Part shown: positions 11,549 to 41,073 of the stretch, piece by piece | How positions within the stretch are numbered: position 1 is the stretch's first letter | Layout: every line of letters starts with the position of its first letter | From: a virus | Lineage: Duplodnaviria > Caudoviricetes | Length of the DNA: 64,000 bases | IMG/VR virus record: IMGVR_UViG_3300043821_000026 | Location: 64,001 to 128,000 of that record | Strand: one strand, 5' to 3' | Notes under the pieces: generated by a model | What the model was told of the DNA's origin: nothing | Databases searched by the model: none | The model's input: the letters and a program-made list of their open reading frames with translations, nothing else | Program-made: the position numbers and the translations under genes

Positions 11549-11622
11549 TCCCCCCTGCCGGACTCGAACCAGCAACATTTCGGTCTACAGCCGAATGCTC
11601 TACCAAATTGAGCTAAGAAGGG
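11549..11622 (-). tRNA. trnY: tRNA-Tyr(GTA), archaeal type (C1-G72, short variable loop, CCA not encoded)
   Basis: Cloverleaf CCCTTCT-TA-GCTC...GAGC-A-TTCGG-CTGTAGA-CCGAA...GCTGG-TTCGAGT-CCGGC-AGGGGGG-A. Confidence 0.95.
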
Positions 11623-12272: not shown

Positions 12273-12273
12273 T

Positions 12274-15213: not shown

Positions 15214-15590
15214 ATAATCATCTCTTAATTTGTTTAATTTTAAAAAAAATTTTAATAAAATAAGTTTAATTTTATATTTTATTTTCAATTATAATGTATA
15301 TTTTTTAAAGTATATAAAGATTTTTATTTTTTTCTTTGTTTTTGCAAATCTTTATCAACTTGACTTGCAGTTCTCTTTCTGCAACTATCAAAGTATCTAC
15401 AATCCCAGTCACACTTCATTAATGAAATATCTTTATCTCTTTTTTTACAATAACATTTATTCTTTATTAGCTTCTTGATTGTTGTCTTTTTCATCTTGCT
15501 CTTTCTCCAATTCACAATCTTCCATATTAATAATTTTTCTTAATTTATTACAGTAAACTTTTCCTTGTTTCGCTAACTCTATTAAATCCA

Positions 15591-16217
15591 TTATATAGCC
15601 TCATTTAATCTTATTTTTATAAGATAATTATTAATATCTTCATAATAATTATCAGATATATTGTTAACTTTATCATTTGATAATTGAAATTTTATATCAA
15701 GCAACTTTTTATTTAAAGCAAAATATTCATCTATCGAATTTACACTTTTTGGTTTAAATTCTTTATCATATAAAAAACAATAATCTTCCATTATTTTATT
15801 ATATTCATCTATATCGTAATTTTTAGAATCAATGATAGAATCAATTCTATTAATTAATTCATCATTAAAATAAAACATTGGTACTGTATCATTTAAAATA
15901 GAAAGAATATCTAATCGTTTTTGATTATATTTTGTTTTAACATCTGTATCATGTGATAGTAGTTTGTAAAATGATATATCTCCTTTATTATATATATTTC
16001 TTAATACAATGCCTATTTCAAAAAAATTAAATATAACATTACTATTTATTTGACTATTTAAAGTAGGTGATGGTTCATGTGTAACATCTAAAAAATTTTT
16101 TGTATTATCTATATATACACCAGTAATATAATCATCAATCTGATAAATATTAAAAAAATAACGTTTCTGTTCAGAAAAATGATTAACAATAGAATCTAAA
16201 ATAGCAGGAGAAATCAT
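15591..16217 (-). CDS. Hypothetical protein, possibly a degenerate nucleotidyltransferase-fold protein
   Basis: Weak resemblance ('GVYI', 'FFEIG..L....KGD'); no intact GS/DxD motif. Confidence 0.25.
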   Translation of the reverse strand: MISPAILDSIVNHFSEQKRYFFNIYQIDDYITGVYIDNTKNFLDVTHEPSPTLNSQINSNVIFNFFEIGIVLRNIYNKGDISFYKLLSHDTDVKTKYNQKRLDILSILNDTVPMFYFNDELINRIDSIIDSKNYDIDEYNKIMEDYCFLYDKEFKPKSVNSIDEYFALNKKLLDIKFQLSNDKVNNISDNYYEDINNYLIKIRLNEAI

Positions 16218-16711
16218 TAAATCTCTCCTTTATGTTTATCATCTTGATAATCACCATCATATTTTATATCACAATTATTTAAATCAAAGCTCATCATTTG
16301 AGCAAATCTTTCATTCATTTCGATACAAAAATTATTTTGACTATGATTTATCATCATAAAAGTTAATGTACCATTGTATCCAGCATCACCAACGCAAGTA
16401 CGAACATCTACCCCACATCTTAATAATGTACTACGAGGGAAATATAATTGTACTTGGTCTTTTGGAATATTCATTGGTTCTGATACTTCTGCAATATATA
16501 CTATGTCAGGATATAAAGTATATATTCCATTTTTAGTATTAACGGGTTTATATATTGGTAAGTTTTTATGTCCATTATAAATACCTGTAGGACATCCATC
16601 ATTATCTTCAATAATATATAATTGTCCTAATCTTAAATCTACACCATTTGGTTGTAAAGTTTCACTATCTGTTTCGTAATTATCTTTTAAATATAAATTT
16701 CCATTAATCAT
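16217..16711 (-). CDS. Trimeric dUTPase / dCTP deaminase family protein (archaeal type)
   Basis: 'QPNGVDLRL', 'PRSTLLR.G', 'DAGY.G', 'ERFAQM', 'Y.G.YQ' motifs. Confidence 0.88.
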   Translation of the reverse strand: MINGNLYLKDNYETDSETLQPNGVDLRLGQLYIIEDNDGCPTGIYNGHKNLPIYKPVNTKNGIYTLYPDIVYIAEVSEPMNIPKDQVQLYFPRSTLLRCGVDVRTCVGDAGYNGTLTFMMINHSQNNFCIEMNERFAQMMSFDLNNCDIKYDGDYQDDKHKGEI

Positions 16712-17378
16712 ATTGTTCACCATTTTCTATTTTATAAAATTCTGTATATAAAAATCTTGCAAATTTAACTGCTATCTTTCTTTGTGTCATATATTTAATA
16801 TGTTTCATTGTATAATTCGAATGTTTAAATAAATATTTATCAAAATATTCGTTATACATTTGTTTATATTCAGGGTTGTATTTAATTAACTTTTTAACAA
16901 CTTTTAATATAACTTTATTTAATCTATCATTATATTGAATTTTTGAAGTATCCTGTTTAGGATTACCAATTATTTCACCATATTGTTTATTTTTTTTAGT
17001 AATTTTTTGATATGAATTTCCCATTTTATTGACTGGAGATAATCCACAATAATATATGAATGAATTTTTATTCTTAAATCTATTAATATCTTTAATTAAA
17101 ACAATTAACTCACCTGCATCATAAATAGATATTCCGTCTATATGTTCTAAGCAATCATAGTATTCTGGAATAAATGATATTGTTTGTTTAATTTTTTTAT
17201 ATAATAAATCTAATGGAGCGTCTAACGAATTAATACTAATATTAATTAAAGAATTTCTTGCATCATTTGTTAAACCTATAAAATTATTAATTCTAGATTT
17301 ATTTGATTTTTTAGCTTCAAATAATGTTTTATTAGTATTGATTAAGATATTTAATACTTGTAATTGTGCATCATCCAT
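16704..17378 (-). CDS. IS110-transposase C-terminal/Nop-like RNA-binding protein lacking the RuvC domain (TasA-like)
   Basis: Coiled coil, then 'IDGIS...AGELI..I.DINRF......YCGLSP', 'YN..L' and 'RKIAV...'; no DEDD domain; 'MG' where IS110 has the catalytic 'SG'. Confidence 0.7.
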   Translation of the reverse strand: MDDAQLQVLNILINTNKTLFEAKKSNKSRINNFIGLTNDARNSLINISINSLDAPLDLLYKKIKQTISFIPEYYDCLEHIDGISIYDAGELIVLIKDINRFKNKNSFIYYCGLSPVNKMGNSYQKITKKNKQYGEIIGNPKQDTSKIQYNDRLNKVILKVVKKLIKYNPEYKQMYNEYFDKYLFKHSNYTMKHIKYMTQRKIAVKFARFLYTEFYKIENGEQYD

Positions 17379-18019
17379 TATCTCACCTTATTAATTCCAT
17401 TAACAGTTTTTTGTCCTATACCTTTTATATTAAGTAGTTCTTCATCTGTTGCTTGTAATACACCTAATGGTGTTTTAAATTCTTTTAGTAATAATTTAGC
17501 TGTTTTTTTACCAACATAATCAATACCTAAAAGAACTTGAATTTTCGAACTAGCGTCTTTCTTTTGAACAATAGGAGGTTCAATTGGTTCAGTATTTTTA
17601 TTAACAGTATTAATTATACTTTCAATTAACAATGGCATTGATTTTTTTGTTTCACATTGTAATACTGGAACTTTATATCTAACAGATAAAGAAGCTATAT
17701 TACTATAGTATTGTTTTCTAGTAAAATTTTGATATTTATAATTAATATCGTCTAATTTGCCATAAATAATAATATAACAAAAATCATATTTTTCTTTCAT
17801 CCTTAATGCTTGGTCTTGAATGTGTCTACTATTAAAGCTAGACACGAAATCACTTACACTTTTAAGTTCAATCATAATATTAGATAAATCTTGTCTTTTA
17901 ATTAAAACATCACCATCTTCATTATGAGATACGGAGCAAATGCCTGAAAAGTATTCATCAATTATTTTTATTGTACTTGAATCTTCTCTATCATCTATTA
18001 AAATTTTTAAATCATTCAT
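17378..18019 (-). CDS. XPF/Mus81/Hef-family (ERCC4 + HhH2) structure-specific nuclease
   Basis: 'IDDRE', 'GD', 'IELKS..DF..S', 'QA.RM' and two C-terminal 'I.GIG.KT' HhH motifs. Confidence 0.88.
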   Translation of the reverse strand: MNDLKILIDDREDSSTIKIIDEYFSGICSVSHNEDGDVLIKRQDLSNIMIELKSVSDFVSSFNSRHIQDQALRMKEKYDFCYIIIYGKLDDINYKYQNFTRKQYYSNIASLSVRYKVPVLQCETKKSMPLLIESIINTVNKNTEPIEPPIVQKKDASSKIQVLLGIDYVGKKTAKLLLKEFKTPLGVLQATDEELLNIKGIGQKTVNGINKVR

Positions 18020-18618
18020 TTATAATCATCTTCCGTTATACGATACCAATCATACTTATCATTAACGTATAAGGAATGATAAGCTGTGGCTTCTATAGCT
18101 TTTTTTATTCTATTACTTGGTTTATTTCTTTTAGTAGAATATAATGAACCAAGAGCTAATTCTTTACCGACTCCTATAGCTACATAATCTCCATCAGGTT
18201 CAAATAAACCAAGATTATCTTCAATCTCAAATATATCACCATTATATACTATTAAAAAATTACTATTAGTTTTAATTTGAGTACCATTCATATCTACTAG
18301 TCCTGATAGTTCTAATTCAGTTTTTAAACAATATAGGAAAGAATTAATTAAATATGTTCTAAAATCTGTTCCTTGTATATAATCAGGAGCTTTATAAGAA
18401 TATCTAATAAAATTGAAAATTGAAAATATACCTGAAAAACCGATAATTAAATGTCTTGTATCAATCTTATTTCCATTTTCATCTACCATATTAAATGGTT
18501 TAGAACAAATTTTAGGATTTTTTGATATTTCTATATTATTTCCTGAACTGATTGCACTATCACTACCAATATATACATCACCTGTTTTTTTATATTTAAT
18601 TGCTACAATTACTGTCAT
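18016..18618 (-). CDS. HslV/proteasome-beta-like Ntn peptidase
   Basis: N-terminal nucleophile Thr (M-T-V-I-V), 'GSDS', 'PKI', 'GFSG', 'AIGVG..LALG'. Confidence 0.75.
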   Translation of the reverse strand: MTVIVAIKYKKTGDVYIGSDSAISSGNNIEISKNPKICSKPFNMVDENGNKIDTRHLIIGFSGIFSIFNFIRYSYKAPDYIQGTDFRTYLINSFLYCLKTELELSGLVDMNGTQIKTNSNFLIVYNGDIFEIEDNLGLFEPDGDYVAIGVGKELALGSLYSTKRNKPSNRIKKAIEATAYHSLYVNDKYDWYRITEDDYK

Positions 18619-18626
18619 ATTTTACC

Positions 18627-19568
18627 TCATATATATAAATAATTTCCATTACAACTTTCATCACATAATCCTTCTAATTTTAATCTTGCACAACTTGGGA
18701 ATAAAACATCAGTTCTATCATATAAATATTCTATTTGATGTTCTGAATTAACACAATGATTAAATTTATTTTCACTAAGAAATCCTTTCATGATATTATG
18801 AATATCTTCTATTGAGTATCCCATATCCCTCAAGTATGTTATTATATAACCTCTTTCTTGATAGCCAAGATTAGGTTCTAACATCATTTTTGATACACAA
18901 GGTATATAAGCATTACTAAATATGATTTTATTATTTTTATTGATAGGTTGATGTATATTATCAGCTTCAGTATCATATTTTTGTAAATCAAGTTTGTTTA
19001 AATATAATGTAGGGTGAATATTTCGAGGACTTGTTGCTAAACTTTTAATTTCCTGCAAGGTAAGTTTGATTATTTCATCACTAAATAATGGTATACAATA
19101 CCTTCCTGTTTTTAAATTAATTGTATTAGGACAACGACGCACTCTCATTAAGTCACCAATTACAGAATTATCACTTAAAGTATTTGTTTTATGATGAAGT
19201 TCTGTTACGAAGTTTTTAATAGCTTTTTTAGGATTTTTCAATGAAACAGATGTATCAACATCTATTAATATATGAAATCCTCTACCTGAATATAATACAT
19301 TATGTGCTATATTATTATCTCTTAAATATTTAACAACAATTTGGCAATTATTATATGCCACTATATCATCATTATTTATTGGGTCAAAATCTAAAAATAC
19401 ATATTTTACAATTGCATTATACGCTTTTGGGTCTTCGTTAAAATTATAAACTGAAATATATAAATCTTTCCAACCATTATTGTTGTTAATTATAGTATCC
19501 CATTTTGTGTCATCAATTGGTAATGTAATTCTAACGTTTGGTTTTAGAAATATCTGACCAACTATCAC
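18627..19568 (-). CDS. priS: Archaeo-eukaryotic primase: PriS catalytic domain fused to a PriL-like Fe-S C-terminal domain
   Basis: 'FLDFD', 'SGRGFH', 'D..RV.R.PNT.N'; C-terminal 'PC', 'PSC..L...GLC...C'. Confidence 0.85.
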   Translation of the reverse strand: MIVGQIFLKPNVRITLPIDDTKWDTIINNNNGWKDLYISVYNFNEDPKAYNAIVKYVFLDFDPINNDDIVAYNNCQIVVKYLRDNNIAHNVLYSGRGFHILIDVDTSVSLKNPKKAIKNFVTELHHKTNTLSDNSVIGDLMRVRRCPNTINLKTGRYCIPLFSDEIIKLTLQEIKSLATSPRNIHPTLYLNKLDLQKYDTEADNIHQPINKNNKIIFSNAYIPCVSKMMLEPNLGYQERGYIITYLRDMGYSIEDIHNIMKGFLSENKFNHCVNSEHQIEYLYDRTDVLFPSCARLKLEGLCDESCNGNYLYI

Positions 19569-19986
19569 TTACATCACCGACATATAGTTCTAATCTTCTA
19601 TCTAAAACTTCATATATTAATCGTCTAATATAATCACATTCTGGTGATAGATATATTCCTCTACCATTCATAATATCAATATATGGCCAATCACGACATT
19701 CTCGCCATCTATCTTTCCATATATCACATACATATAATTTATAATTATCTTCATCATGTTGTAAATGTTCACATTCCATACTTGAACAGCAATTACCACA
19801 TCTAATACAGTAATCTTTTGATTGTATATAATCATAGGTAAATTCAATCGGTGTAGTAACTATAGCTTCTTCAATTATATCTGCTAAAATATCAGTATCT
19901 AAATCTGGAAATTTATTATGATAATAGTCTAATAATTCTTTTAATAATTTAAGATAGTTAGCAAATTTAGAAATTTTTTCTTCCAT
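19531..19986 (-). CDS. YkgJ-like Cys-cluster (Zn/Fe-S) protein
   Basis: 'CIRCGNCC...C..L......C.I...R...CR.WP'. Confidence 0.7.
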   Translation of the reverse strand: MEEKISKFANYLKLLKELLDYYHNKFPDLDTDILADIIEEAIVTTPIEFTYDYIQSKDYCIRCGNCCSSMECEHLQHDEDNYKLYVCDIWKDRWRECRDWPYIDIMNGRGIYLSPECDYIRRLIYEVLDRRLELYVGDVSDSWSDISKTKR

Positions 19987-20717
19987 TAGAAACCACCTTC
20001 AATACTACATCTAGGTTTATATGGACAATATTTACATAAAAATTGTCTATTGGGTTGAAAATTATTTTCTTTAATTTTATTATTAATAAAATCTAATAAT
20101 TTTAAACTTGCATTTATATCCTCTTGAGTTAATAAAGTACCTTTGTTAATTTCCCCTCTAACTTTTGCAAACCTAAAATTATTATCTCTTGTAAAAAATA
20201 TACCAACATATGAAACTGGTAACTCAAATTCGTCTTCTAATAAAACAACATAATATGAAAGTTCTAATAAATATTTTTTAACTCCACCTGTTTTACCAGT
20301 TTTATAATCTACTACCACTAGCTCCCCATCTTTAATTAATACTAAATCTGCTAAACCTGATAGGTTATATTTTAAATTATGAATATAATATTCTGCTGTA
20401 TATATTCTAAAACCTTCAGCAAAACAATCATATATAAAATCTGCAAAATGTGAAAGATGATTTTTAAATTCACTTGCTCTATCATATTGCATTAAAGCAT
20501 TATTTATATCATCGATTGACATATTTTCTATCTCTTTATTAGAATATTGTTTAACAAATAATTCAAATATTTTATGTATAGCAAGTCCTATATCTAATGC
20601 AGAGCCTTTTTCAGGACTTGGTTGTGGTAAGTTATCTATATTTTCATATTTAAATCGTCTAGGACATTGTAAATATGTATTAACCTTACTTTTTGATAAT
20701 TTCATGTATATCACCAT
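19986..20717 (-). CDS. PD-(D/E)XK exonuclease, RecB/Cas4-like with Fe-S cysteines
   Basis: 'S.S....Y..CP', 'G..IH', 'G.AD', 'VDYKTG', C-terminal 'C.YCPY...C'. Confidence 0.85.
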   Translation of the reverse strand: MVIYMKLSKSKVNTYLQCPRRFKYENIDNLPQPSPEKGSALDIGLAIHKIFELFVKQYSNKEIENMSIDDINNALMQYDRASEFKNHLSHFADFIYDCFAEGFRIYTAEYYIHNLKYNLSGLADLVLIKDGELVVVDYKTGKTGGVKKYLLELSYYVVLLEDEFELPVSYVGIFFTRDNNFRFAKVRGEINKGTLLTQEDINASLKLLDFINNKIKENNFQPNRQFLCKYCPYKPRCSIEGGF

Positions 20718-23148
20718 TTAATTTATCATTCTTCTTAACATTGGCGAACGGTTTTTTTGAGAACTTAAATTCAATATAATCAGACGCTACAATATCTTTT
20801 TCTATGTTATTATAAGCATTTGAACAACTCATAATAACAATATTTTTACCATCGTACCCATCAATTCTTAAACAGTCGTTTCCTTTTTTACTTTTAAAGT
20901 ATGTAATTTTTTTTACAACTGCATATTTTGCTTGATGTTCGTTTAAGCTTTTAATTATTGTTATATATGAATTACTAATATATTGGTACTCATTTATAAA
21001 CATTTCTTTATCCATTTCTAAATTAATAAAAAAATGTGCATAAAATTTACCCTTCCATGTATGGCATTTAACAATATATGGGTCACCAACTTTAAGGTTA
21101 TCAATATATCGATTTAATACATTTTGATTTACACTAATAGATATATTATTACCTTTATCTTGAATATGGATAATACTGTATCCTTTTTTGTTATCTATAT
21201 CTATACATATTCCTTTAATATATACTTCATCAACATCAATGTTGGGATTGATATCATCAGTATTTGTTATATATCTATCATATTCGGTTTCATATTTATT
21301 AATCAACTCTTCATGAGGGCTAAATTTTAATACTGCATATTCATATTTTAGCCTATCTTTATCAGACCAATCTTCATCAACTTTATCTTGATTAAATGTG
21401 TTATATATTTCATTTCTGTTCCCAAATCTATCAAATGCACCTGCATATATTAGATTATTAACTACAGATTTATTAACTTTTCTTGGTCGTCTTTTTTGTA
21501 AAAATAAATCAAATGAAAAATAAGGCTGATGTAGTAAAATTTCTTCAATAGCTTTATCTCCAACTTTATCAATAGTTGATAGTCCCATATAAATATTTTT
21601 TCCCATAAATATAGTATCTCTTTGAGATATATTAATATCAGGATTATGTAAAACTAAATCCATATTTTTTATTTCAGATAATATTTTATTCTTTTTTTCA
21701 TCATCTTTTGTATGATTTAAACAAGCTACAGAAAATTCTGCTGGATAATATGTTTTTAAATACCCTGTATAATAACTTATTACTGCATAATTTTTAGCAT
21801 GAGCTTTATTAAAACTATATGAACTAGATTTTTCAATCTTATCCCATATTAATTCTGCTGTTTCTTTAGATACGTTATTATTAAGACAACCATCAATAAA
21901 CTTTGGTTTATATTCAGTAAAAATATAATCTAATTTCTTACCAATACCTTTTCTTATATTATCTGCATCAACATCAGTTAATCCTGCTAATACCATACAT
22001 ATTTTCATTGCTTGTTCTTGATAAACAATTGCACCTTTTGTTTCTTTTAATATAGGCTCTAATCTTGGGTCATCATATTCAATTTCCTCTTCACCAAATT
22101 TTCGTGCAATATATCTATCTGCATCACCAGAATCCTGTGAACCGGGTCTTACTAAAGCTAAAGCCGCAATTAAATCATTAAAGCAATCTGGTTTCATCTT
22201 TTTAATATATGATGATGCTGATGGAGTTTCTAATTGAAATATATTTAATGGATTTTTTAGTATTGTATTATAAACTTTTTTATCTTCATATTCTGTTGGT
22301 AATTTAAAGGTATCATTATTAATTAATTTAATTGTATCTTCAATAATAGATAATGTATTTAATCCTAATGTATCATTTTTTAAAAATTTTAAACTATCAC
22401 ATCTATGACCATCATAGGATACACAATCTACACCATTAACTCTTACTGTTGATGAATAATTCTCTATTGAATCAGGGAATAATAATGTCCCACCTGCGTG
22501 AATACCATATGCCTTTATTAATCCATTAATTTTTTTAAAATTTTGTTCAACTTTTGGATATTTATTAAAGAAATCCTGTACTTTTTTGATTTCGTATATA
22601 TCATCAACAGTCATATCATCAGTTATTAGAGATGTTATTTGATTTACTTCTTTAAATGGTACATTAAATACTCGTGATACATCTTTAATACTAGTTTTAA
22701 TTGTGAATCTTATTAAATTTGGAATACTAAATGCACAATCTCTACCAAATTTATCTTTAATTAAATCTAATGCTTCTTGTCTTCTTGTTTTAGGAATATC
22801 TGTATCTATATCAGGCATTGAGTTTTTAATTCTAGTTTTATTTATAAAACGAGAAAACATTAATCCTTCTTTTAATGGGTCAGTAGAAACTATATTAAGA
22901 CAATAACATAATAAACTACCACCTGCTGAACCTCTACCGGGACCTAAAAACATTCCTTCAGATTTTAAAAGATTGCATATATAAGAAGTGTTTAAAAAAA
23001 AGTCAGATAGATTTGCATCAGTAATAATATCAAGTTCCATTCTTAATCTATCTTCGTATTCTTTACCTGATAAATGTCTTTTCTTAAAGCCTTTTAAAGC
23101 CATTTTTCTTAAATAATCATCATTGTTTATATTAAATGTTTGTTGCAT
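20686..23148 (-). CDS. dnaE: Family C DNA polymerase (DnaE/Pol III alpha) catalytic core plus OB fold
   Basis: 'GPGRGSAGGSL', 'PDIDTD', 'HAGG', 'K.D.LGL', 'IFQLE', 'RPG', 'YQEQ', 'YSFNKAHA'. Likely start MQQTF overlaps the PHP gene stop (TAATG). Confidence 0.93.
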   Translation of the reverse strand: MQQTFNINNDDYLRKMALKGFKKRHLSGKEYEDRLRMELDIITDANLSDFFLNTSYICNLLKSEGMFLGPGRGSAGGSLLCYCLNIVSTDPLKEGLMFSRFINKTRIKNSMPDIDTDIPKTRRQEALDLIKDKFGRDCAFSIPNLIRFTIKTSIKDVSRVFNVPFKEVNQITSLITDDMTVDDIYEIKKVQDFFNKYPKVEQNFKKINGLIKAYGIHAGGTLLFPDSIENYSSTVRVNGVDCVSYDGHRCDSLKFLKNDTLGLNTLSIIEDTIKLINNDTFKLPTEYEDKKVYNTILKNPLNIFQLETPSASSYIKKMKPDCFNDLIAALALVRPGSQDSGDADRYIARKFGEEEIEYDDPRLEPILKETKGAIVYQEQAMKICMVLAGLTDVDADNIRKGIGKKLDYIFTEYKPKFIDGCLNNNVSKETAELIWDKIEKSSSYSFNKAHAKNYAVISYYTGYLKTYYPAEFSVACLNHTKDDEKKNKILSEIKNMDLVLHNPDINISQRDTIFMGKNIYMGLSTIDKVGDKAIEEILLHQPYFSFDLFLQKRRPRKVNKSVVNNLIYAGAFDRFGNRNEIYNTFNQDKVDEDWSDKDRLKYEYAVLKFSPHEELINKYETEYDRYITNTDDINPNIDVDEVYIKGICIDIDNKKGYSIIHIQDKGNNISISVNQNVLNRYIDNLKVGDPYIVKCHTWKGKFYAHFFINLEMDKEMFINEYQYISNSYITIIKSLNEHQAKYAVVKKITYFKSKKGNDCLRIDGYDGKNIVIMSCSNAYNNIEKDIVASDYIEFKFSKKPFANVKKNDKLNGDIHEIIKK

Positions 23149-24053
23149 TAGCACCACCAATCCTCATCAAATAAAGCATCTAATTCTTCGTATCGATTAA
23201 ATTCAGGTATACGAACTTGAGGTTCTTCTAATTGAGCATTACATTTATTTGTAATATCAATTGTATTTTTAAATGATTTCTTTAATATATCCTCATGTTC
23301 AAAGCCACTTTGTTCTGCCCATAATTTTATCCTATCAGGACTTCCTAAAGAATTAGATTCCATTGATTGATAAACATCTTCGATATTTTTATGATATCCA
23401 ATTGCTTCTATAATATTTCTAACATTAGCGTCTTCAGGATTTAAAAAATGTGAATCAGATGTTACTATTGTTGGAATACCTAATTCATCATTTAAAGTTA
23501 CAATACCTTCATTAATTTTTGCTTGAGCTTCAAATTTAGGGTGCATTTGTAATTCAAGATAATAATCTTCACCAAATTTTTCATAAAAATTTTCTGCAAT
23601 TTTATATGCTTTTTGATAATCATCTTTCATTAATGCTTCTCCTATATCACCTAATGCACAAGCAGAAGTGATAACTAATCCATCAGGATTTTTCCATAAT
23701 TCTTCATATGATAATATTGGTTTGTAATAAAAATTATCGTTAGCTATTTTATTTAATTTTCGAATATTATATAATCCTTGTTGATTTTTTGCTAATACTA
23801 TTAAATGTCTTCTATCTTTTGTCTTCTCTCCAGTATATGTAGTTCTACAATAAAATTCACAACCAAATATAGGTTTTATATTTTTTTCTTTAAAAGCATC
23901 ATTAATATCATACCATGCACCAATAGACGCATGGTCTGTTATAGCACAAGCTTGTTGATTAAAATCACTTAATAATGAAGCTAAGTCATTTGGTTTAATT
24001 ATTGCGTCTAATATACTCCATGTTGAATGTAAATGTAAGTTTGTAAAATTCAT
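23148..24053 (-). CDS. Stand-alone PHP domain of DnaE (N-terminal part of a split polymerase)
   Basis: 'LHLHS.WS.LD', 'AITDH', 'G.E.Y', 'HL..LAKN', 'SAC..G', 'TSDSH'. Confidence 0.9.
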   Translation of the reverse strand: MNFTNLHLHSTWSILDAIIKPNDLASLLSDFNQQACAITDHASIGAWYDINDAFKEKNIKPIFGCEFYCRTTYTGEKTKDRRHLIVLAKNQQGLYNIRKLNKIANDNFYYKPILSYEELWKNPDGLVITSACALGDIGEALMKDDYQKAYKIAENFYEKFGEDYYLELQMHPKFEAQAKINEGIVTLNDELGIPTIVTSDSHFLNPEDANVRNIIEAIGYHKNIEDVYQSMESNSLGSPDRIKLWAEQSGFEHEDILKKSFKNTIDITNKCNAQLEEPQVRIPEFNRYEELDALFDEDWWC

Positions 24054-24251
24054 TTATATACCTTTTAATTGTTTAACTGTAACACCAAATAGTACTGTCG
24101 GTTCAGGTATAATTATACTTATTATATTTTCGTATATATCTAAGCCAACTTCTATACCATAAGAATACCGACGCTCAACTATTGTAGTGTCTACGTTTTT
24201 TATAAATCTTAATTCATCAAATTCTTCATTATATTCGATGTTCCAATTCAT
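24054..24251 (-). CDS. DUF2283-like small protein
   Basis: 'Y..E.D.L.F...GI...D....II.I.I' pattern; paralog at 28359-28667. Confidence 0.45.
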   Translation of the reverse strand: MNWNIEYNEEFDELRFIKNVDTTIVERRYSYGIEVGLDIYENIISIIIPEPTVLFGVTVKQLKGI

Positions 24252-25147
24252 TCATCATCATTCTCACCATCATCTTCGTTGGGGATATTTGAAAAAAGTG
24301 AATTAATTTTACCAGCGTCCCAAACATATTTATTAAGTTTGTTATTAACTGTAGCGAAAACCACTTTCTTTTTTATATTTAAAATATTTGAACGGTCTTT
24401 ATCCATCATTGCAATAAAGTTAATAACATGAGGATTTTTTTCATCTTGTTCTTTGGAATATATTAATCTATGAGAACAGGAACTATGTAGTCTTTGTTTA
24501 ACAGATGCAAATTTTTCATCATCAGGTTGTCTAATGAAATCATCATGTCCAATAAAGAAACAATCAATTGGTAATTGTAAAAATACTTCAGTACATTCAC
24601 GGAAATTTTTAGCTCTAATTTTCCAGAATTGAGTATTTGCACCTGAATCAGGAGCTATATTTTTTTCTTCTCTCATTAAATTTTCACATGATTCAAGTAA
24701 AAAACTAATTCCATCAATGATAATAGCTCTAATTTTCATTCCTTCATCTGATAGTTCAGATATAGCTTGTGCGGCAGACCTAAGATTATCTACAAGACCT
24801 TGATGGTCAATAACTGATACACCTTTTGCATTAACCATTGTTGCATATGGGTTGTAATGTTTTATCATATCTTTTTGATATGAATCAAAATTAAATTCTT
24901 TAATAATTTCTAATGCACTATTATCAATATCAATAACAATGATTTTTTCATCTTCGCTCATATCTTGTAATAACATTGATATAACACTACCAGTTTTGCC
25001 TGTAGAATCTGCTCCTAAACATAATACATTTTTAGGAGTTTTAGGATTCATTACTACATTACTTTGTTCAAATATTTCTTTAATTTCATCTTTCAATGTT
25101 TTTCTTGGTTTTCTTGTTGCTTCTGCTTTCTCTTTAAACATTATCAT
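24248..25147 (-). CDS. P-loop ATPase (AAA_24/Sak4/RecA-like recombination protein)
   Basis: Walker A 'GADSTGKT', 'IDID', Walker B 'IIIDG', 'FIGH'. Confidence 0.7.
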   Translation of the reverse strand: MIMFKEKAEATRKPRKTLKDEIKEIFEQSNVVMNPKTPKNVLCLGADSTGKTGSVISMLLQDMSEDEKIIVIDIDNSALEIIKEFNFDSYQKDMIKHYNPYATMVNAKGVSVIDHQGLVDNLRSAAQAISELSDEGMKIRAIIIDGISFLLESCENLMREEKNIAPDSGANTQFWKIRAKNFRECTEVFLQLPIDCFFIGHDDFIRQPDDEKFASVKQRLHSSCSHRLIYSKEQDEKNPHVINFIAMMDKDRSNILNIKKKVVFATVNNKLNKYVWDAGKINSLFSNIPNEDDGENDDE

Positions 25148-25483
25148 TCACCTCATTACGAACTTTTTGTAATCGTTCGTATATAAAACCTCTTAATTGT
25201 GGAGTTTGTATATATTTTAAATCATCTTCAAGCATTTCTATTTCTTTTAAATTATTATTCTTGTTGCTCATTATTTTCACCTTCTTTTTTAGGTGGGTTT
25301 AAAAACATTAATCGTTCAAACATATCATTTTGATACTTCCACAATAAATTTTCTGCATATGCATATACCATAGGATGTTTGATATTTTGCATATCAATTC
25401 TTAAAATTTGTATTTTAGAGCGAAGACTTCTTGTCATATTACTCATTATGACAAGAGGGTCTTCAAATTCGCTATCTCCCATT

Positions 25484-26485
25484 CTAACCAACTGGATTAA
25501 CAAATGGTAATATACCTAATAAATTACAGCCAACTTCTCCATCGGATTTAACATAAACTGATAAAATAGCAATTACATCAGCTTCTTCTGAAAATATTGG
25601 TAATGTTTTACGAACTTCAGGACTAATCCAACAGTTAAAATCACTCATATCATTATCTGCTAATCTAATAAATGTTGATTTATTTGGGTCATTACTATTA
25701 CCTTTTTCTAATACAGAGCCTTGCATAATAACACAATTATTTCTTGGTAAATCTCTTTGCTCTGCAAATTCAATTAATTCATCATAATTTTCAACAAACC
25801 ATTCTTTAGGTAATACACTAGATAATTCATCATATACTTCATTCATAGCAGTAAAAGTTAATGGCATTTCGTTATTATCTAATACTGTATAATTATTTAA
25901 TAAAAACATATTGGATTTAAACATCTTATCTTCGTTACCATCTTTTTTACATAACTCAATAGGTTGGAATAATGGAACATTAGTATCTACATTAAAAGGA
26001 GCTAAAAATATACTATGAGGTTCTAATTCATCATTTTTATTCATGAATACACCATAATATTTACCTTTAGCAGTTTCTTCAGGTATAATACCATCATTAA
26101 ATGGGTCGCTTTCATCATAAAGATAATTACCTTCAGAATCTACATAACCTACATTTTGAGCTTCTTCTGTAGTATGGTTTTTAAGATATTCTGTAATTTC
26201 TTGTCTACGTCTAGCAGAAAAATCTTTATTTCTTTCACGTGCAAAAAGATATCCCTTAATACTGTCGCAATCTGATGTTTTTCTTTTTCTTAAAGAACCT
26301 ATAAATCTACGATATACTCTTCTTTCTTTTTCACTATCATCAATATTATCGTCTTTAATATCACTAAAAAGTGCTTGACATCTATTAACAAAGTCGTCTT
26401 CATTTATATTATTATCTTCAGCAACTTTCATTGCTTGTGCTTTTAATTCATCGTTGCTAATAATTTTTATTGGCATATATTTCAC
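25484..26485 (-). CDS. Putative ssDNA-binding (OB-fold) protein
   Basis: Acidic protein, first gene of the replication operon, with an OB-like C-terminus; positional inference. Confidence 0.35.
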   Translation of the reverse strand: MKYMPIKIISNDELKAQAMKVAEDNNINEDDFVNRCQALFSDIKDDNIDDSEKERRVYRRFIGSLRKRKTSDCDSIKGYLFARERNKDFSARRRQEITEYLKNHTTEEAQNVGYVDSEGNYLYDESDPFNDGIIPEETAKGKYYGVFMNKNDELEPHSIFLAPFNVDTNVPLFQPIELCKKDGNEDKMFKSNMFLLNNYTVLDNNEMPLTFTAMNEVYDELSSVLPKEWFVENYDELIEFAEQRDLPRNNCVIMQGSVLEKGNSNDPNKSTFIRLADNDMSDFNCWISPEVRKTLPIFSEEADVIAILSVYVKSDGEVGCNLLGILPFVNPVG

Positions 26486-27427: not shown

Positions 27428-27739
27428 TCTTTAATACTTGATTAACTGTCTTAATTTTTTTTACCCAAAATTGAAAATCAGTATATATTTTTTTTCTTTT
27501 AACAATAAAATGAGTATCCATATCTGTTATTAAATAACAAATATAGTCATCGTAAAAATAGATAATTTCTTTACTTTTTTTTAAATCAGATTCATTAATT
27601 TTTCTATTATAAATAATCATAACAACACCTTTTTTATATATGTAATTTACCTCGACTTTCCCCAATTATAATGAAGCCACGAGCTTTCTTTTATATTGCA
27701 AATACAATAGCGAGGTGTATTATCGTGGTTTCAATTGAA

Positions 27740-28060
27740 TTACATTGAATTTATTTGTTCTGCTTTTTCTAATAATATTTTATTTAATGTTGTCTGAAAA
27801 TTATAATAATCAGATACAATTTTACTATCAAAATTTAAGAAAAATTGATTATCTGATATTTTTATTAAAATATCAAAATCTGTTAAAATTTCAGGCATAA
27901 CAGTATAAAAATCTAAATCATTTTTATATAAATCTGAAATTTCTTTTCGAGATAATACATCATAACGATTATGATATTCACTATCAAGAAGAGTTAAAAT
28001 ATCCTCTGGGTAGAGGGTATTTTTTTCTCTTGATTTTTTTAAAAAGGAAAATATAAAAAT
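27740..28060 (-). CDS. Hypothetical protein (~106 aa) with non-canonical ATT/ATA start, not in ORF track
   Basis: Stop-free frame fills the gap downstream of an AAGGAG RBS. Confidence 0.5.
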   Translation of the reverse strand: MFIFSFLKKSREKNTLYPEDILTLLDSEYHNRYDVLSRKEISDLYKNDLDFYTVMPEILTDFDILIKISDNQFFLNFDSKIVSDYYNFQTTLNKILLEKAEQINSM

Positions 28061-28068
28061 ACTCTCCT

Positions 28069-28308
28069 TTAAACCCCAATTTGGGTAGTTAATTCTTCAG
28101 TCTTTAATTGTTCAGCAACATCAATTCTTTTTTCTTCACTCAATTGTGTAGCAATATATCCAATAATTGCAACAATAGTTGGAGCAAAAACCTTTAATTC
28201 AGTAGGTAATAATGGTAATAGTTGGTCTACTGTCACATAGCTTAAAATAGTTGCTATGAAAGAAATGATATTGATTGTTCGACTTTTCCATTTATATGTT
28301 TCTGTCAT
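28069..28308 (-). CDS. Holin-like two-TM membrane protein
   Basis: 'WKSRT' N-terminus, two hydrophobic helices, charged tail. Confidence 0.6.
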   Translation of the reverse strand: MTETYKWKSRTINIISFIATILSYVTVDQLLPLLPTELKVFAPTIVAIIGYIATQLSEEKRIDVAEQLKTEELTTQIGV

Positions 28309-28639
28309 GATTAATTACCTCTAAATTAAAACTATTTTTTTTGTAGTATATAACTATATTAAATTTTTATTATTATCGGAAATGGTTGTATATTTCCTAC
28401 TTGTACATAAAATATTACTTTATTACCATTATCTGTACAATCATATTGCGTATTAATAACACTAATATTACCTTGTACAGGAAAATTAAGTTGTTTTTGA
28501 ATATGTGGACAAACTATTCTAATAATATTACCATCAGTTGTATATTCAATATTAGCACCATTACACATTTTAGCACATACTATATCGTCATCATTATGTT
28601 CTAAATTAATATGTAATTCATCTAAATAATCAACATATT

Positions 28640-29221
28640 CTACTTCTTTGATTGACAACTTTGACAACCTCTTTGTTTAATCTTTGTTTCTATATTATAT
28701 TTATACTCTATATCTTCATTAAAACTACTTGCCTCTTCATACATAAGATTTAATACTCGATTTTTATCTTCATCACTAACTGATGGGTCAAATCCAATAA
28801 TATAAGTTATTTCATATGGTTCTTGATGGAAATATTTATGGGAAAATTCAGTTACAATATCACTATTAATAACCTGCACATTAAAAATTGCACTTGTAAT
28901 TTCACTATATTTTGTAGCTAAATTAGCATAAAATTCAGTAGCTTCCTGTAAAGTACTAACTATAGATTCTATACTATTAACAACTGATTTATCATACCCA
29001 TCATAAAGATAATATTTAAATTTACCGTCCATTAAGTACATACATACAGATTGTACCCCTTGAGTAAATTCTATATCTTCAGGTTTTTTATTTCCGTCAA
29101 GCATCATAAGTCTTACGCGAAAATTATTTTCATTTAATTCTTCAACTAATCTTTGAGTATATTGATAACATTTTTCACAACCAAATTTATGTAAAATATA
29201 TAATCTTATACTTCTATACAT
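28640..29221 (-). CDS. Thioredoxin/glutaredoxin-like CxxC protein
   Basis: N-terminal 'LYILHKFGCEKC' strand-CxxC-helix pattern. Confidence 0.35.
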   Translation of the reverse strand: MYRSIRLYILHKFGCEKCYQYTQRLVEELNENNFRVRLMMLDGNKKPEDIEFTQGVQSVCMYLMDGKFKYYLYDGYDKSVVNSIESIVSTLQEATEFYANLATKYSEITSAIFNVQVINSDIVTEFSHKYFHQEPYEITYIIGFDPSVSDEDKNRVLNLMYEEASSFNEDIEYKYNIETKIKQRGCQSCQSKK

Positions 29222-29484
29222 TCTTTAACCTCAAATTTATTAATAAAGTTTTTAGTACCTACAGTTTTGGGTAAGCATGATGAAAATCTATCTAATACGT
29301 ATTTATTTACATATACAGTACCCGGATTGATTAACCATATATATTCTTGATAAAAATCATTACAAAATTCATCAGTAATATTTGTAATATTAGTAAAATC
29401 AAAAGCTACAACAGAAACTTTATTAATACTATCAAAAATTTTACTAACATCTTTATTAATATATTTATCCATTATTAAAAGCAT
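29206..29484 (-). CDS. STAS-like (DUF4325-type) protein
   Basis: 'V.FDF.NI..I...F..DF' motif; paralogous domain at the N-terminus of 46483-46977. Confidence 0.45.
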   Translation of the reverse strand: MLLIMDKYINKDVSKIFDSINKVSVVAFDFTNITNITDEFCNDFYQEYIWLINPGTVYVNKYVLDRFSSCLPKTVGTKNFINKFEVKECIEV

Positions 29485-30161
29485 TATATCAGCTCTCTAC
29501 CTATATGATATCCGATAATTGGAGGTATTGAATCTGCTATTTGCTGATAACTATCTTCAGTTAATTTATAACTAGCAGGAAATCCTTGTAATATACCTGC
29601 CTCTCGTGGTGTAAGTATTCTATCTTCAGTTGGGTGTATGATAATATCTTTTTTTGCGTTACTCATAATTGGAGCAAAGCTATAAGGTTTTAATCTACGA
29701 TAAGCATTAAAGGTTTTATTTTGTAGATTATAATCAGGTATATCAATCCAACAACCACCAGCAGGAACTCTTTTTATTCTTTCGGATACTGATTTAGGCA
29801 TATCTATAATAATATGACCTTGTTTTGTAGCAGTAAATTGTTGATAAAAAGTTAATGGTTCATGATTAATAGCATCTAGACTATCTTTCACAATTGGAGA
29901 TGGATATGAAAAATGATATAGGTCTACTATATTTGATTCCCATGCTAATACTCTATTTTGAGGTATTCCAAAATTTCTAATATTAAAAATTTTATCTCCT
30001 TTAGCATCATGTTTTATATATAAATAAGAATTTTCTGGAAAACCATTAGGTGGCACTTCGTGAAAAATCGACAAGTCTTCGTTTTTATCAACAATTTTAT
30101 GTCCTGCTATTTCAAATCCTATTGATAATTGAGGTGTTAAACAATATTCTTTAATTTTCAT
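29484..30161 (-). CDS. Degenerate DNA (cytosine-5)-methyltransferase homolog, predicted catalytically inactive
   Basis: Motifs VIII-X intact ('FGIPQNR', 'HPTEDR.LTPRE...LQGFP', 'YQQIADSIPP'); FxGxG, the catalytic PC and ENV are missing. Confidence 0.7.
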   Translation of the reverse strand: MKIKEYCLTPQLSIGFEIAGHKIVDKNEDLSIFHEVPPNGFPENSYLYIKHDAKGDKIFNIRNFGIPQNRVLAWESNIVDLYHFSYPSPIVKDSLDAINHEPLTFYQQFTATKQGHIIIDMPKSVSERIKRVPAGGCWIDIPDYNLQNKTFNAYRRLKPYSFAPIMSNAKKDIIIHPTEDRILTPREAGILQGFPASYKLTEDSYQQIADSIPPIIGYHIGRELI

Positions 30162-30555: not shown

Positions 30556-31272
30556 TCATATTTTTACCTCATTCTTAATATATTTACGTGCTTCAGGAAT
30601 ATCATTTTCATATATATGAATACTAGCACTAAGTGTTGTTATACTTCCAAAATCAATTAATTCGTTATATGATTTATCTTTGTTATAATTTCTCATAATA
30701 GATTGAACCATATATTGGACTGCAAAAAGATTACTATAATATCCTAAAAACCCATCATGAGAACGCCATATACCTGTAGTATATAATTTATTATCTCTAA
30801 TTTTACAATCAAGCATCATAAAGCATGGAATTTCGTCGCATTGAGTATCAATAAAAGGGTCATATGTGATAGCAACAGCTCTATTAGTATTACTATTTTT
30901 ATTTAATCTTTTTACAATTTCTTCAATTTGGTCTACTGCAAAATGACTTCTTAATCTATTACCATAAGTATATGTAAATCCATTATTCATTGGATTCATA
31001 AATTCCGTAATATATTCTGCAACTAATGTTGGTTTAAATGGATAATCGTCATTATCATAAATATGAGATTGTAGGCCATTAAAAATTGCATGTGGTAATA
31101 ATCGTTTATAAGACTCGCTTCTATCTAAATTTAATGGATTTGTTAGTCTTGTAACTACATCTAAGCACTCAAGCCATTTACCTCCACGCTCATTATCATG
31201 CATAACGCCATTATCCAATATATACTTAACCAATGTTTTATGAACGTTTTGTATAGTATCTCCTTCAATCAT
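30556..31272 (-). CDS. thyA: Thymidylate synthase, archaeal type
   Basis: 'YTYGNRL', 'DQI', 'RA', catalytic 'PC', 'RSHD', 'N', 'HIY'. Confidence 0.9.
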   Translation of the reverse strand: MIEGDTIQNVHKTLVKYILDNGVMHDNERGGKWLECLDVVTRLTNPLNLDRSESYKRLLPHAIFNGLQSHIYDNDDYPFKPTLVAEYITEFMNPMNNGFTYTYGNRLRSHFAVDQIEEIVKRLNKNSNTNRAVAITYDPFIDTQCDEIPCFMMLDCKIRDNKLYTTGIWRSHDGFLGYYSNLFAVQYMVQSIMRNYNKDKSYNELIDFGSITTLSASIHIYENDIPEARKYIKNEVKI

Positions 31273-32159: not shown

Positions 32160-32257
32160 ACTACCACCACTTATAGAAGTGGTGGATTCCTAACTTCGAG
32201 CTGAAAGGCAATCCCCGTCGTCCCAACGGTTCAGAATGTTTATTGCTGCATAAAACT
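32156..32257 (-). mobile_element. IS200/IS605 right-end / TnpB omegaRNA-scaffold mini-element, copy 1
   Basis: Encodes a TnpB-like C-terminus AAINILNRWDDGDCLSARS*, then GAAT-CCACCACTT-CTAT-AAGTGGTGG-TAG-TTCAA; 103/104 identical to 38748-38851. Confidence 0.85.
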
Positions 32258-39069: not shown

Positions 39070-41073
39070 TTAAATGTTTTGGTTTTTATCAATATCTTGT
39101 AAATCAGTTTTACCACAATAGATGCAAGGTTTACCTTTAATAGTTAATTCATCACAATTAGGGCAATATGCAAGATATTCTTCTTTAATGCTTTCATTAG
39201 GAAGAATGGATTTCCATATAGCTCTTTGTTTACCGTTAATATTTCTACGCATTCTATCAAAGTTTCGTTTATCACCAGTTAAGTCGAAAATAGAATCACG
39301 CCATACTTTAGAGCGTTCACCTTTTACGTCTAATCCATCTTTAATAGATAATATATCAGTCAGTTCTCTAAATAAGTCTTTAGTTAGATAACTATCATTA
39401 TCATCTGTATTAATGAAATAATTGAAAACAATTTCATTTTCAGAATAAGCATGTTTTTTAAGTTTATCTAAAAGTTTTTTATCTGATAATTTTAACATTG
39501 GTATTGTACAGTTATCTATCATTCTTCTATATGCTTGAATTGATTGATAAATTAACCATTCCATATATTCAGTATTTTCTAAAATTCTATTTTCAAAATT
39601 TACATCTTCAAGCATTTCTTGAGTTGGTTTTTTTAAAAATTCTAATAATAATACTCTTCTTAAAAAAGATTTATCCATTGATTCAGGAGCTATTGGTTTA
39701 TTTCCAACTGCTATTAATTTCGCAACATCAGAACTTGGTATAGTAACTTGTGGTTTATTTTTTTCTTCAACAGAAAGTGGTGAACCACTTGTATGTTCTT
39801 TAAAAAATGCAAAATTATCTACTTTATTACCATCAACCTCTTCTATTCTTGCAAGTGTTTTATTAATAATACTTGAATATTCGAATCTATTATTATTAAG
39901 TATTTTTGGTAAAGATATAGTACAACAATTATGTTCACCTAATGCTTTAGATATAAAACGAAGCAACATACTTTTTCCTGCTCCACCAATACCAAATATA
40001 AATAACATCCATTGATGTTTAGTGTGTCCCGGCTCTACAATTACATATCCAATGTATTCTAATAGTCCATTCATACCCTCTTCGCCTAGTTCATATTCTA
40101 ACCAACTTTTTAACTCCCCACCTTCAGCATTTGGATTATACTTATAAGGAATAGTTAGTTTAGTATATATTGGATTTGTTCCAGTTGAAGTAGTTTCATA
40201 TGTAGTTGTATCTAATACCTGATTTTTAAAACCAACTTTACTATACAATGGAGTTTTTATTTCAGTTACGTAATTAGATAATGAATTTTCTAATGTTTTT
40301 CTTGTAGTTGTACATGGTAATTGAAGAACCTTATCATACATTTGCCCATCATCATCTTTAACTTTGATGATTTTTTCAGTATACATTCTTTTATTTAAAA
40401 AATCAAGCCAATTAGTTTTAGCATTGATTATAAATTCTCCATATCCACCCATATAATTATTGATAAATAATCTATTTTTATTTGGGTCATAAAACATACC
40501 AAATAAATCCATAAAATAATCTGCTATCTCTTTTGTCAATTGATTAACATTATTAATTTTAATAGTATTTTTAACTGACTCTCTTTCTAATTTTTTTTGC
40601 AAAGCTCTTTTTTGACTTTCATATAATCTTATTAAAATAACTTGGTCTTTATAGGTAAAGTTTTTATTATTAAAATTATCTTTATTTAAAATATCATCAT
40701 TAGGATAGTATTGATAATACTTATCTCTTGTAGAATATATCTCTTCAGGAGTTATATCTAAATCTTCAGGAAGTTCAATCTCATTTTCCTTATCTAACTC
40801 ACTATTAATCATATTATCATAATACTGTCCCCATTCATCTTGAATTTCAACAGAATTAATAATATCTGATAACTTATTTCTATACATTTCAACTGCTATT
40901 TCATGGTCTATTGGGTCTATATTACTCCAATATTCTGACCAAAATTCTTCTTCATCTAATTCTTGCCCAAATTGTTCGAATACATCTTTATTAAATAAAT
41001 TTGATATACTATTATTTTTATAATTTTTAATAGAATATTCAGATGGTTCAGGCATAAAATTTATTATAGCCAT
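39070..41073 (-). CDS. D5/P4-like SF3 replicative helicase
   Basis: D5_N-like 'F.N..LD', Walker A 'GIGGAGKS', Walker B 'IEE', 'GN', 'RR'; C-terminal Zn ribbon. Confidence 0.85.
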   Translation of the reverse strand: MAIINFMPEPSEYSIKNYKNNSISNLFNKDVFEQFGQELDEEEFWSEYWSNIDPIDHEIAVEMYRNKLSDIINSVEIQDEWGQYYDNMINSELDKENEIELPEDLDITPEEIYSTRDKYYQYYPNDDILNKDNFNNKNFTYKDQVILIRLYESQKRALQKKLERESVKNTIKINNVNQLTKEIADYFMDLFGMFYDPNKNRLFINNYMGGYGEFIINAKTNWLDFLNKRMYTEKIIKVKDDDGQMYDKVLQLPCTTTRKTLENSLSNYVTEIKTPLYSKVGFKNQVLDTTTYETTSTGTNPIYTKLTIPYKYNPNAEGGELKSWLEYELGEEGMNGLLEYIGYVIVEPGHTKHQWMLFIFGIGGAGKSMLLRFISKALGEHNCCTISLPKILNNNRFEYSSIINKTLARIEEVDGNKVDNFAFFKEHTSGSPLSVEEKNKPQVTIPSSDVAKLIAVGNKPIAPESMDKSFLRRVLLLEFLKKPTQEMLEDVNFENRILENTEYMEWLIYQSIQAYRRMIDNCTIPMLKLSDKKLLDKLKKHAYSENEIVFNYFINTDDNDSYLTKDLFRELTDILSIKDGLDVKGERSKVWRDSIFDLTGDKRNFDRMRRNINGKQRAIWKSILPNESIKEEYLAYCPNCDELTIKGKPCIYCGKTDLQDIDKNQNI

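Follow-up and report, generated by a model that had tools for sequence, protein, structure and literature searches.

The closest described system is that of the Methanothermobacter virus PhiF1 (MK994522), in whose public record two adjacent genes, ORF58 and ORF57, are each annotated 'putative DNA polymerase III DnaE superfamily protein'; the former encodes a PHP domain and the latter a polymerase core, separated at a place homologous to that described below. The object of the present analysis was the corresponding pair of genes in the window, a stretch of 64,000 nucleotides comprising bases 64001-128000 of the 138,502-bp IMG/VR virus record IMGVR_UViG_3300043821_000026 (linear; 27% GC; ~95% complete, CheckV). 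The two-gene DnaE is real and is not unprecedented, the PhiF1 record already annotating one. The order of genes is the same in PhiF1 and in the window (333-aa gene, AAA_24, PHP, core, PD-(D/E)XK, primase, XPF, HslV-like, NrdD); the identity is 31-39%, and the two differ in the frame offset at the junction as well as in genome size and composition (74 kb, with 45% GC in the fetched stretch, vs 138.5 kb and 27% GC). In PhiF1 (L001 5351-10184) the PHP gene has an N-terminal family-4 uracil-DNA glycosylase domain and the core has an intein after GPGRG; the genes of the window are without both. PhiF1 also encodes a pseudomurein-binding lysis protein.

Bacterial DnaE1 (T. aquaticus, 2hpi; M. tuberculosis, 5lew) has the order PHP-palm-fingers-(HhH)2-OB, of which the window has all but a merely probable OB, together with the same nine PHP ligands and the same three catalytic Asp residues, and is a single polypeptide, whereas two are encoded in the window. 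The DnaE halves of cyanobacteria are joined by protein trans-splicing and are split far downstream in the polymerase; in the window the genes are adjacent, the cut is at the PHP/palm linker, and intein fragments are absent. Cyanobacterial DnaE (DnaE-n/DnaE-c) is likewise given as a product of two genes in excerpts of PMC3919608, in which family C is said to be essentially confined to bacteria, with a handful of members in phages. The E. coli Pol III core (alpha + epsilon) also has polymerase and proofreader as separate subunits with a tail-to-domain contact (PMC3664792, excerpts); its proofreader is a DEDD exonuclease (DnaQ) on an inactive PHP, whereas in the window PHP itself is detached and no DnaQ was found by Pfam. 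In excerpts of PMC5636811 and PMC11348249, PHP is described as the intrinsic proofreader of M. tuberculosis DnaE1.

Virus-borne DnaEs (phrog_405), often beside a Cas4-like nuclease, are known from Streptomyces phage Pepperwood, Bacillus phage vB_BpsS-36 and Moorella phage MTATph1; these phages infect bacteria, their DnaE genes are fused and their primases are of DnaG type or other, and the clade of the window is separate from them (100 SH-aLRT). The core of the window matched 1425 of 50,697 phage records. Archaeal viruses are said to encode family B polymerases (2024 survey, PMC11348598, excerpts), and a full-text literature search found no paper on DnaE in an archaeal virus. Castelle et al. 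(2021, PMC8204110, excerpts) described DnaE genes of DPANN archaea in the vicinity of phage-like genes, with PolD genes as direct neighbours. In view of the phage records, the PhiF1 annotation and the DPANN DnaE, the statement of the first-pass annotation that family C polymerases are bacterial replicases is too strict.

Two metagenome-assembled genomes (MAGs) of Woesearchaeota (loci L041 and L078) carry fused PHP and core on cellular contigs, on a branch of their own (100 SH-aLRT) outside the clade of the window; L041 encodes a stand-alone DnaE of 1018 aa. On a 635-kb contig (26% GC), L078:1792-8247 is one uninterrupted open reading frame (ORF) of 2151 aa consisting of the PolD large subunit (DP2 N-terminal, central and catalytic domains, C-terminal Zn finger), a K/E/N-rich linker of ~50 residues and full PHP+DnaE; PCNA is encoded on the same contig, and no DnaN in this genome. 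The excerpts of Castelle et al. mention DnaE beside PolD genes in two Pacearchaeota and contain neither 'fusion' nor 'fused' (PMC8204110). The PolD-DnaE fusion in L078 would be remarkable, if it is not an assembly error.

The DnaE pair and its neighbours probably form the replication module of a tailed virus of methanogens, ~138 kb in size and akin to PhiF1; the virus would have its own two-polypeptide family C replicase with PHP as proofreader. PHP (301 aa) and core (820 aa) would be translated from overlapping TAATG genes and would come together without a covalent link in the architecture usual for DnaE, with the body of PHP on palm and thumb and the amphipathic PHP tail (~278-300) clasping the N-terminal helices of the core; PHP would supply the 3'-5' proofreading exonuclease, like the in-chain PHP of Mycobacterium DnaE1. 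Priming is probably performed by the adjacent AEP/PriL-CTD-like primase (AEP, archaeo-eukaryotic primase), and unwinding probably by a distant superfamily 3 (SF3) helicase. The heterodimer is predicted; exonuclease activity and the role of main replicase are what we infer from the data below.

Gene structure and conservation of the split

Both genes lie on the minus strand. The stand-alone PHP protein (301 aa; 24053..23148; PF02811, E 2.7e-33) has the C-terminal end ...ELDALFDEDWWC and the stop codon TAA at 23150..23148; the DnaE polymerase core, devoid of PHP (820 aa; 23148..20686; PF07733, 4.3e-57; PF17657, 7.6e-44; PF14579, 3.1e-17), starts with ATG at 23148..23146. At the junction, TGC TAA TGC, the two genes overlap by 1 nt, the last A of the stop codon being the A of ATG; this TAATG stop/start overlap (23146..23150, minus strand) was read directly from the sequence, and the PHP-core coupling proposed by the first-pass annotation was confirmed by ORF coordinates and Pfam. 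GGTGGTG, formed by the Trp-Trp-Cys codons, precedes the core start immediately; TGGTGGTG, encoding WWC, may be a Shine-Dalgarno-like ribosome-binding site for the core gene.

The core consists of palm, fingers, (HhH)2, a probable OB-fold and a C-terminal region; PF07733 (palm) is covered at positions 1-260 of 260, and the OB-fold match is weak (PF01336, E 5.5e-4; 20.3 bits, below the cut-off of 27). The region between FDRFG and conserved W594 (internal beta-binding region) is shortened to about 17 residues, in comparison with the QADMF segment of E. coli. On the profile NCBIfam PRK06826, positions 3-294 are occupied by PHP residues 1-292 and positions 294-901 by core residues 8-594, just ~7 residues being unaligned on each side of the break; phrog_405 was matched end to end (PHP, 42-339; core, 336-1143). 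No intein family was found on PHP or core by Pfam and, because the halves abut on full-length DnaE profiles, there is no space for intein fragments and nothing is missing; the reported lack of split-intein motifs at the junction thus stands. Inteins were detected where they exist, namely in NrdD of the window, in the PhiF1 core and in 3 of 120 core homologues. Three metagenomic cores with an intein have lengths of 1226-1229 aa.

The identical junction TGCTAATGCAA is present in two IMG/VR relatives, L008 (core 95% identical) and L009 (78%). L010 (43%) has PHP (304 aa) and core (807 aa) in one frame, TAG and six bases lying between them; in PhiF1 (34%), PHP (ORF58) and core (ORF57) overlap, and the core has a likely TTG start after AGGAGG. 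The frame relation at the junction is accordingly +2 in the group of the window, 0 (in-frame TAG) in L010 and +1 in PhiF1; three differing relations argue against any shared recoding that fuses the products. PHP and core were adjacent, overlapping or nearly so, in 5 of 5 group genomes examined. When 5.8 billion protein clusters were searched with the core, PF02811 was absent from all of the 120 best matches listed (42-95% identity); their length was 794-820 aa, except for the 3 made longer by an intein. Among the listed matches of PHP, 74 of 120 were stand-alone proteins of 275-325 aa. Contigs from public runs X7 (another study) and X6 span the junction with 0 gaps or indels; runs X8 and X9 gave no contig across it and are uninformative either way. 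On the sequences compared, the split is genuine, conserved and old, and is no error of sequencing or assembly: the frameshift that had been named as a possible objection is answered by recurrence of the split in relatives of 95%, 78%, 43% and 34% identity, and the read check asked for at the same time by the X7 and X6 contigs.

Outside this group the split is rare. Of 79 cellular-genome loci (L010 excluded), PHP and core share a frame in 74, and a split at this boundary was seen in 0; the remaining 5 gave no PHP match, 4 of these being cut by contig ends. Among 80 distant IMG/VR loci, 3 (L104, L121, L123) are split near the PHP/core boundary, and PHROGs contains the fragment families phrog_11165, 12219, 7513 and 13169, so that split phage DnaEs are catalogued already; taken together, the PHP/core split is not unique to the clade of the window. 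The scan of IMG/VR with the core alignment returned distant relatives only (28-39% identity), the clade at 42-48% being seen only as protein clusters without context.

L010 is contig CAVFGN010000005.1 (71.5 kb) of a MAG labelled Alistipes finegoldii; 13.3 kb were fetched (28.6% GC), and the contig bears the module of split DnaE, XPF, dCTP deaminase and NrdD of this virus group. The 28.6% GC makes it almost certain that a viral contig was wrongly binned with a Bacteroidota MAG.

Active sites and the predicted PHP-core complex

PHP metal site: The ligands H7, H9, D16, H41, E66, H83, C132, D200 and H202 align with those of T. aquaticus Pol III alpha (2hpi) and are invariant in 23 of 23 stand-alone PHP proteins; the earlier remark that PHP retains metal-binding motifs holds for all nine positions. 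In the core, D113, D115 and D259 are invariant in 14 of 14 sequences and align (2hqa) with D401, D403 and D555, the catalytic residues of E. coli. Both halves look functional. Because the nine-residue metal site is complete, PHP most likely supplies proofreading, and it is regarded as a putative Zn-dependent 3'-5' exonuclease of the polymerase.

PHP-core complex: The complex of PHP with core residues 1-620 was predicted with a separate alignment for each partner, in three runs and with three controls. The ipSAE was 0.87 (runs: 0.88, 0.87 and 0.87) while the best control reached 0.00; the runs had at least 94% of contacts in agreement, the pLDDT of the partners was at least 91, and 147 contacts were confident. 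The pass mark of this test was attained by 116 of 157 solved complexes and by 2 of 215 mismatched pairs. In the model the tail (PHP residues 278-300) lies on core residues 7-63, contacts being made by P278-F285, R287, Y288, E290, L291, L294, F295, E297, W299 and W300; the invariant core residues F50, L52 and Y56 belong to the patch under the tail. What the family conserves of the tail is no more than an amphipathic pattern behind the IPxF motif; the DEDWWC end was found in 2 of 23 aligned PHP proteins. The linker between PHP and core appears to be ~18 residues longer than in E. coli. The tail had been suggested to dock to a clamp or to a partner; the model favours the latter, with the core as partner, no simple PIP-box or beta-clamp motif being found, and a clasp joining the subunits, not a clamp-binding peptide, is the best interpretation of the tail.

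Clamp and other replication proteins: DnaN, PCNA, clamp loader, DnaQ and a second polymerase were not found by Pfam in ORFs of at least 60 aa of the whole record, the 3778-aa structural ORF being left out and a 2924-aa ORF covered in part. Simple patterns of the PIP-box and of the QL[SD]LF-like beta-motif were not found in PHP or core; divergent clamps or motifs can be missed by Pfam and regular expressions. A single internal match to a clamp motif, in the AAA_24 ATPase, was treated as chance.

Phylogeny, host and competing explanations

For 10 of the 16 module genes, a homologue is encoded within one 18-kb stretch of PhiF1, and the order is nearly conserved: the 333-aa protein of unknown function, AAA_24, ThyA, PHP, core, PD-(D/E)XK, primase (39% identity), XPF, HslV-like and NrdD. 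L010 and the window have in common PHP, core, a Cys-rich protein, XPF, a Tnp_20-like protein, dCTP deaminase and NrdD. In FastTree (142 rows; 38 loci with two-piece or partial cores left out), the window, its close kin, 11 proteins of ~800 aa, L010 and PhiF1 are on one side of a branch (97), the neighbours of the window clade being viral contigs and Streptomyces phage Pepperwood; in an IQ-TREE quick search (58 rows, LG+C20), the ~800-aa clade was retained with 100 SH-aLRT. In these trees the window clade nests among viral and not among cellular DnaEs. The DnaE phylogeny recommended in the first-pass annotation was thus in favour of viral nesting, and the grouping with PhiF1 was obtained in FastTree and in a constrained tree, and not in a free IQ-TREE search (see below).

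Host: A 336-aa protein of the structural module has a pseudomurein-binding repeat (PMBR; PF09373, E 4.6e-12, above cut-off); its N-terminal repeats resemble those of the PhiF1 endoisopeptidase, and it matched just 4 of 50,697 phage records, namely two of vir080, with Methanobacteriales as host, and two of psiM100 PeiW. PF09373 was present in 0 of 14 control genomes; PMBR was found neither in L008 and L009, fragments with a completeness of 13% and 20%, nor in the MAG to which L010 belongs, these records being partial and uninformative. The best match of the large terminase subunit (TerL) was that of PhiF1 (36% identity, E 5e-74; next, 9e-12). The thymidylate synthase is of methanogen type (30556..31272, minus strand; TIGR03283 thy_syn_methano, E 8.8e-50, 169 bits, just under the cut-off of 174.55) and 34% identical to the 'methanogen-type thymidylate synthase' of PhiF1. 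Bacterial tRNA-Tyr has a long variable arm and G1:C72, a short arm with C1:G72 being the archaeal/eukaryal type; the tRNA-Tyr(GTA) of the window (11549..11622, minus strand; 74 nt) has a short variable arm, the C1:G72 pair and A73, and is of archaeal type. The XPF-like nuclease is closest to archaeal Hef/Xpf models. Because of PMBR, the methanogen-type ThyA, the archaeal-type tRNA-Tyr and the terminase and gene order shared with PhiF1, a methanogen with a pseudomurein wall (Methanobacteriales) is the most likely host; the virus, called archaeal from the outset, very probably has an archaeon as its host.

Several points weigh against the two-polypeptide replicase of a PhiF1-related methanogen virus. 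PhiF1 was set apart from the window clade in the free IQ-TREE quick search (97 SH-aLRT), the backbone being unresolved; the tree constrained to PhiF1 + clade was 27.2 lnL above the free quick tree (p-AU 0.82), so that the best of the trees obtained is one with PhiF1 and the clade monophyletic, and this grouping is not rejected. Synteny is the main ground for assuming a single origin of the split. PHP domains of the E. coli type are inactive, so that conservation of ligands alone is no proof of exonuclease activity. The pass of the complex test may be memory of solved single-chain DnaE, so that it shows likeness and not binding. With no Pfam-detectable clamp, clamp loader or clamp-binding motif, the processivity of a DnaE-type enzyme in an archaeal cell is hard to explain. 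Finally, one scan of cellular genome contigs gave no methanogen genome, and the contig of the closest relative was binned with Alistipes.

The missing clamp is also the point from which the DnaE pair might be seen as auxiliary (gap filling, recombination-dependent synthesis, repair), working with the Cas4-like, Sak4-like and XPF proteins while host PolD/PolB and PCNA copy the bulk of the genome. The module is indeed rich in recombination/repair genes, and the pair of DnaE and Cas4-like nuclease recurs in Firmicutes phages; the virus nevertheless has its own primase, SF3 helicase, NrdD, ThyA and dCTP deaminase, typical of self-replicating large viruses, and no other DNA polymerase family was found in the Pfam-scanned ORFs of at least 60 aa, so this explanation is regarded as unlikely. 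Quite improbable is an independent PHP (phosphoesterase, pyrophosphatase, end-cleaning nuclease) that does not bind the polymerase: PHP and core are always adjacent (5/5 genomes), and the predicted interface is large (147 confident contacts) with invariant interface residues in the core, against which can be set the separate polypeptide with its complete metal site, the fact that PHP domains of other families act alone, and the pyrophosphatase activity reported for E. coli PHP (PMC4822814, excerpts).

Synthesis of a fused DnaE by programmed frameshifting or stop-codon read-through is suggested by the genes of L010, which are in the same frame with a single TAG between them, and by the compact overlap at the window junction; it is very improbable in view of the frame relations of +2, 0 and +1 in three lineages, the absence (by eye) of an X XXY YYZ slippery heptamer at TGGTGGTGCTAATG, and the start codon that each core has of its own at a homologous place. 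Least credible of all is a bacterial host with acquired archaeal-looking genes, or a split produced by assembly or sequencing. DnaE is overwhelmingly bacterial or phage-borne, and the nearest relative in a cellular record is labelled Alistipes; PMBR, however, matches only viruses of Methanobacteriales, the tRNA-Tyr is archaeal-type, ThyA is that of methanogens, TerL and synteny point to PhiF1, and the 'Alistipes' contig has 28.6% GC. As to an artefact, the split is common to independent assemblies and distant relatives.

The two-polypeptide replicase proposed for the window might be extended, tentatively and with less than even expectation, to a large clade of uncultivated methanogen viruses of 100-165 kb with an obligate two-subunit bacterial-type replicase, AEP primase, SF3 helicase and no beta clamp, which would be clamp-independent or would use archaeal PCNA in a new way; if this is true, a detachable proofreader could let the virus tune fidelity. 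The window locus, PhiF1 and >100 metagenomic relatives suggest a family C enzyme entrenched in methanogen viruses, with the proofreading-type domain always in a separate gene. The locus is of interest for its conserved two-subunit form and for the question of how such an enzyme would be processive in an archaeal cell. The two-gene form is a natural dissection of PHP from polymerase and could be used for studying proofreading by PHP, the proofreader of the M. tuberculosis replicase. Since PhiF1 and its host Methanothermobacter are cultured, the coupling of a bacterial-type polymerase to an archaeal-type primase, helicase and possibly PCNA is directly testable.

Primase, neighbouring genes and other features of the record

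Primase: The protein encoded at 18627..19568 (minus strand; 313 aa; phrog_16345 primase, 5.1e-12) is a Prim-Pol-type AEP primase with a C-terminal PriL-CTD-like four-Cys domain. AEP motifs I (DxD), II (sGxGxH) and III (hD) are present; among 30 sequences D60 and D62 are invariant, and S94, G97, H99 and D139 are at least 90% conserved. The AF2 model (pLDDT 89.6) gave 31 PDB matches at E <=0.001 in Foldseek, every listed one to that level being an AEP; best were Prim-Pols (CAPP, LigD-Pol, Prim-PolC, RepB', E about 1e-5; top 9e-6), followed by archaeal PriS (7e-5). The C-terminal domain of archaeal PriL is a 4Fe-4S domain with four Cys ligands; residues 221-308 align weakly (E 0.0012) with S. solfataricus PriL (5of3_B), four Cys (C224, C293, C302, C306) being matched; PF04104 was below cut-off, and the N-terminal domain of PriL is absent. 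The family comprises 852 clusters at E <=0.001. An archaeal PriS-PriL fusion, as claimed in the first-pass annotation, was not demonstrable, the fold fitting bacterial/viral Prim-Pols at least as well as PriS.

Gene block: The genes form a tight minus-strand block from 26485 to about 15591; the 13 genes between 25147 and 15591 are separated by gaps of <=8 nt or overlap, and are presumably co-transcribed. All features of this paragraph are on the minus strand. The block opens with a 333-aa gene (25484..26485) without family match (PhiF1 homologue, E 2e-10); it was considered as a clamp or single-stranded DNA-binding protein (SSB) and set aside (5 homologues only; weak Atlas OB/SSB lead, 0.75; AF2 pLDDT 47.5, too poor for a fold search). 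It is followed by an AAA_24/Sak4-like ATPase (24248..25147; PF13479, 1.7e-6; phrog_124, 1.7e-7; PhiF1 homologue 32% identical). Downstream of the core lie a PD-(D/E)XK/Cas4-like nuclease (19986..20717; PF12705, 1.7e-26; PF01930, 8.5e-7), which adjoins DnaE also in PhiF1, Moorella phage MTATph1 and Bacillus phage vB_BpsS-36, and, between nuclease and primase, a Cys-rich protein (151 aa, CxxCxxCC; 19531..19986) without family match, which has homologues in L009 and L010 and none in the PhiF1 stretch. Next to the primase are an HslV-like peptidase homologue (18016..18618; phrog_1040, 8.1e-17; PhiF1 homologue annotated putative ATP-dependent protease) and a short XPF/Hef-type nuclease (ERCC4 + HhH2; 17378..18019; PF02732, 2.7e-13; PF12826, 5.4e-9; NCBIfam Hef nuclease, 7.4e-24, and archaeal Xpf, 7.8e-13, both under curated cut-offs). 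Primase and XPF had both been named as neighbours of the polymerase, and both were confirmed; the XPF gene (18019..17378) lies just outside the interval originally delimited for the cluster. The SF3 helicase reported elsewhere in the window was found to be of D5/P4 type (667 aa; 41073..39070; PF19263, 7.5e-11; TIGR01613, 2.6e-23, below cut-off).

Further observations: A 224-aa protein inside the replication block (window 16704-17378, minus strand) has a Transposase_20 (IS110-family C-terminal) domain as its sole match; a PhiF1 gene annotated 'transposase 20 superfamily-like' is at the same place, and tblastn gave no direct match between the two. An intein interrupts NrdD (anaerobic ribonucleotide reductase, 1004 aa; window 12274-15288, minus strand); the match of this intein to a LAGLIDADG homing endonuclease is weak (E 0.006, below cut-off), and the PhiF1 homologue of NrdD is shorter. 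An IS200/IS605 element (TnpA Y1 transposase + 379-aa TnpB) lies within the structural module outside the window (L005:14678-16226 = G000 48678-50226). Giant structural ORFs of 2628, 3778, 2924 and 1655 aa were found (G000 9137-17023, 27571-38907, 57978-66752; window 3322-8289), and the proteins beside them have many Big_3_5, Big_1, DUF11, Chlam_PMP and beta-helix repeats, which recall adhesin-like proteins. Five clustered tRNA genes (Tyr, Ser x2, Gln, Thr; window 11549-12168, minus strand) lie between the structural and replication modules and showed no encoded 3' CCA in the stretch read. DNA of the virus is present in bioreactor-sludge and wastewater metagenomes of 13 studies.

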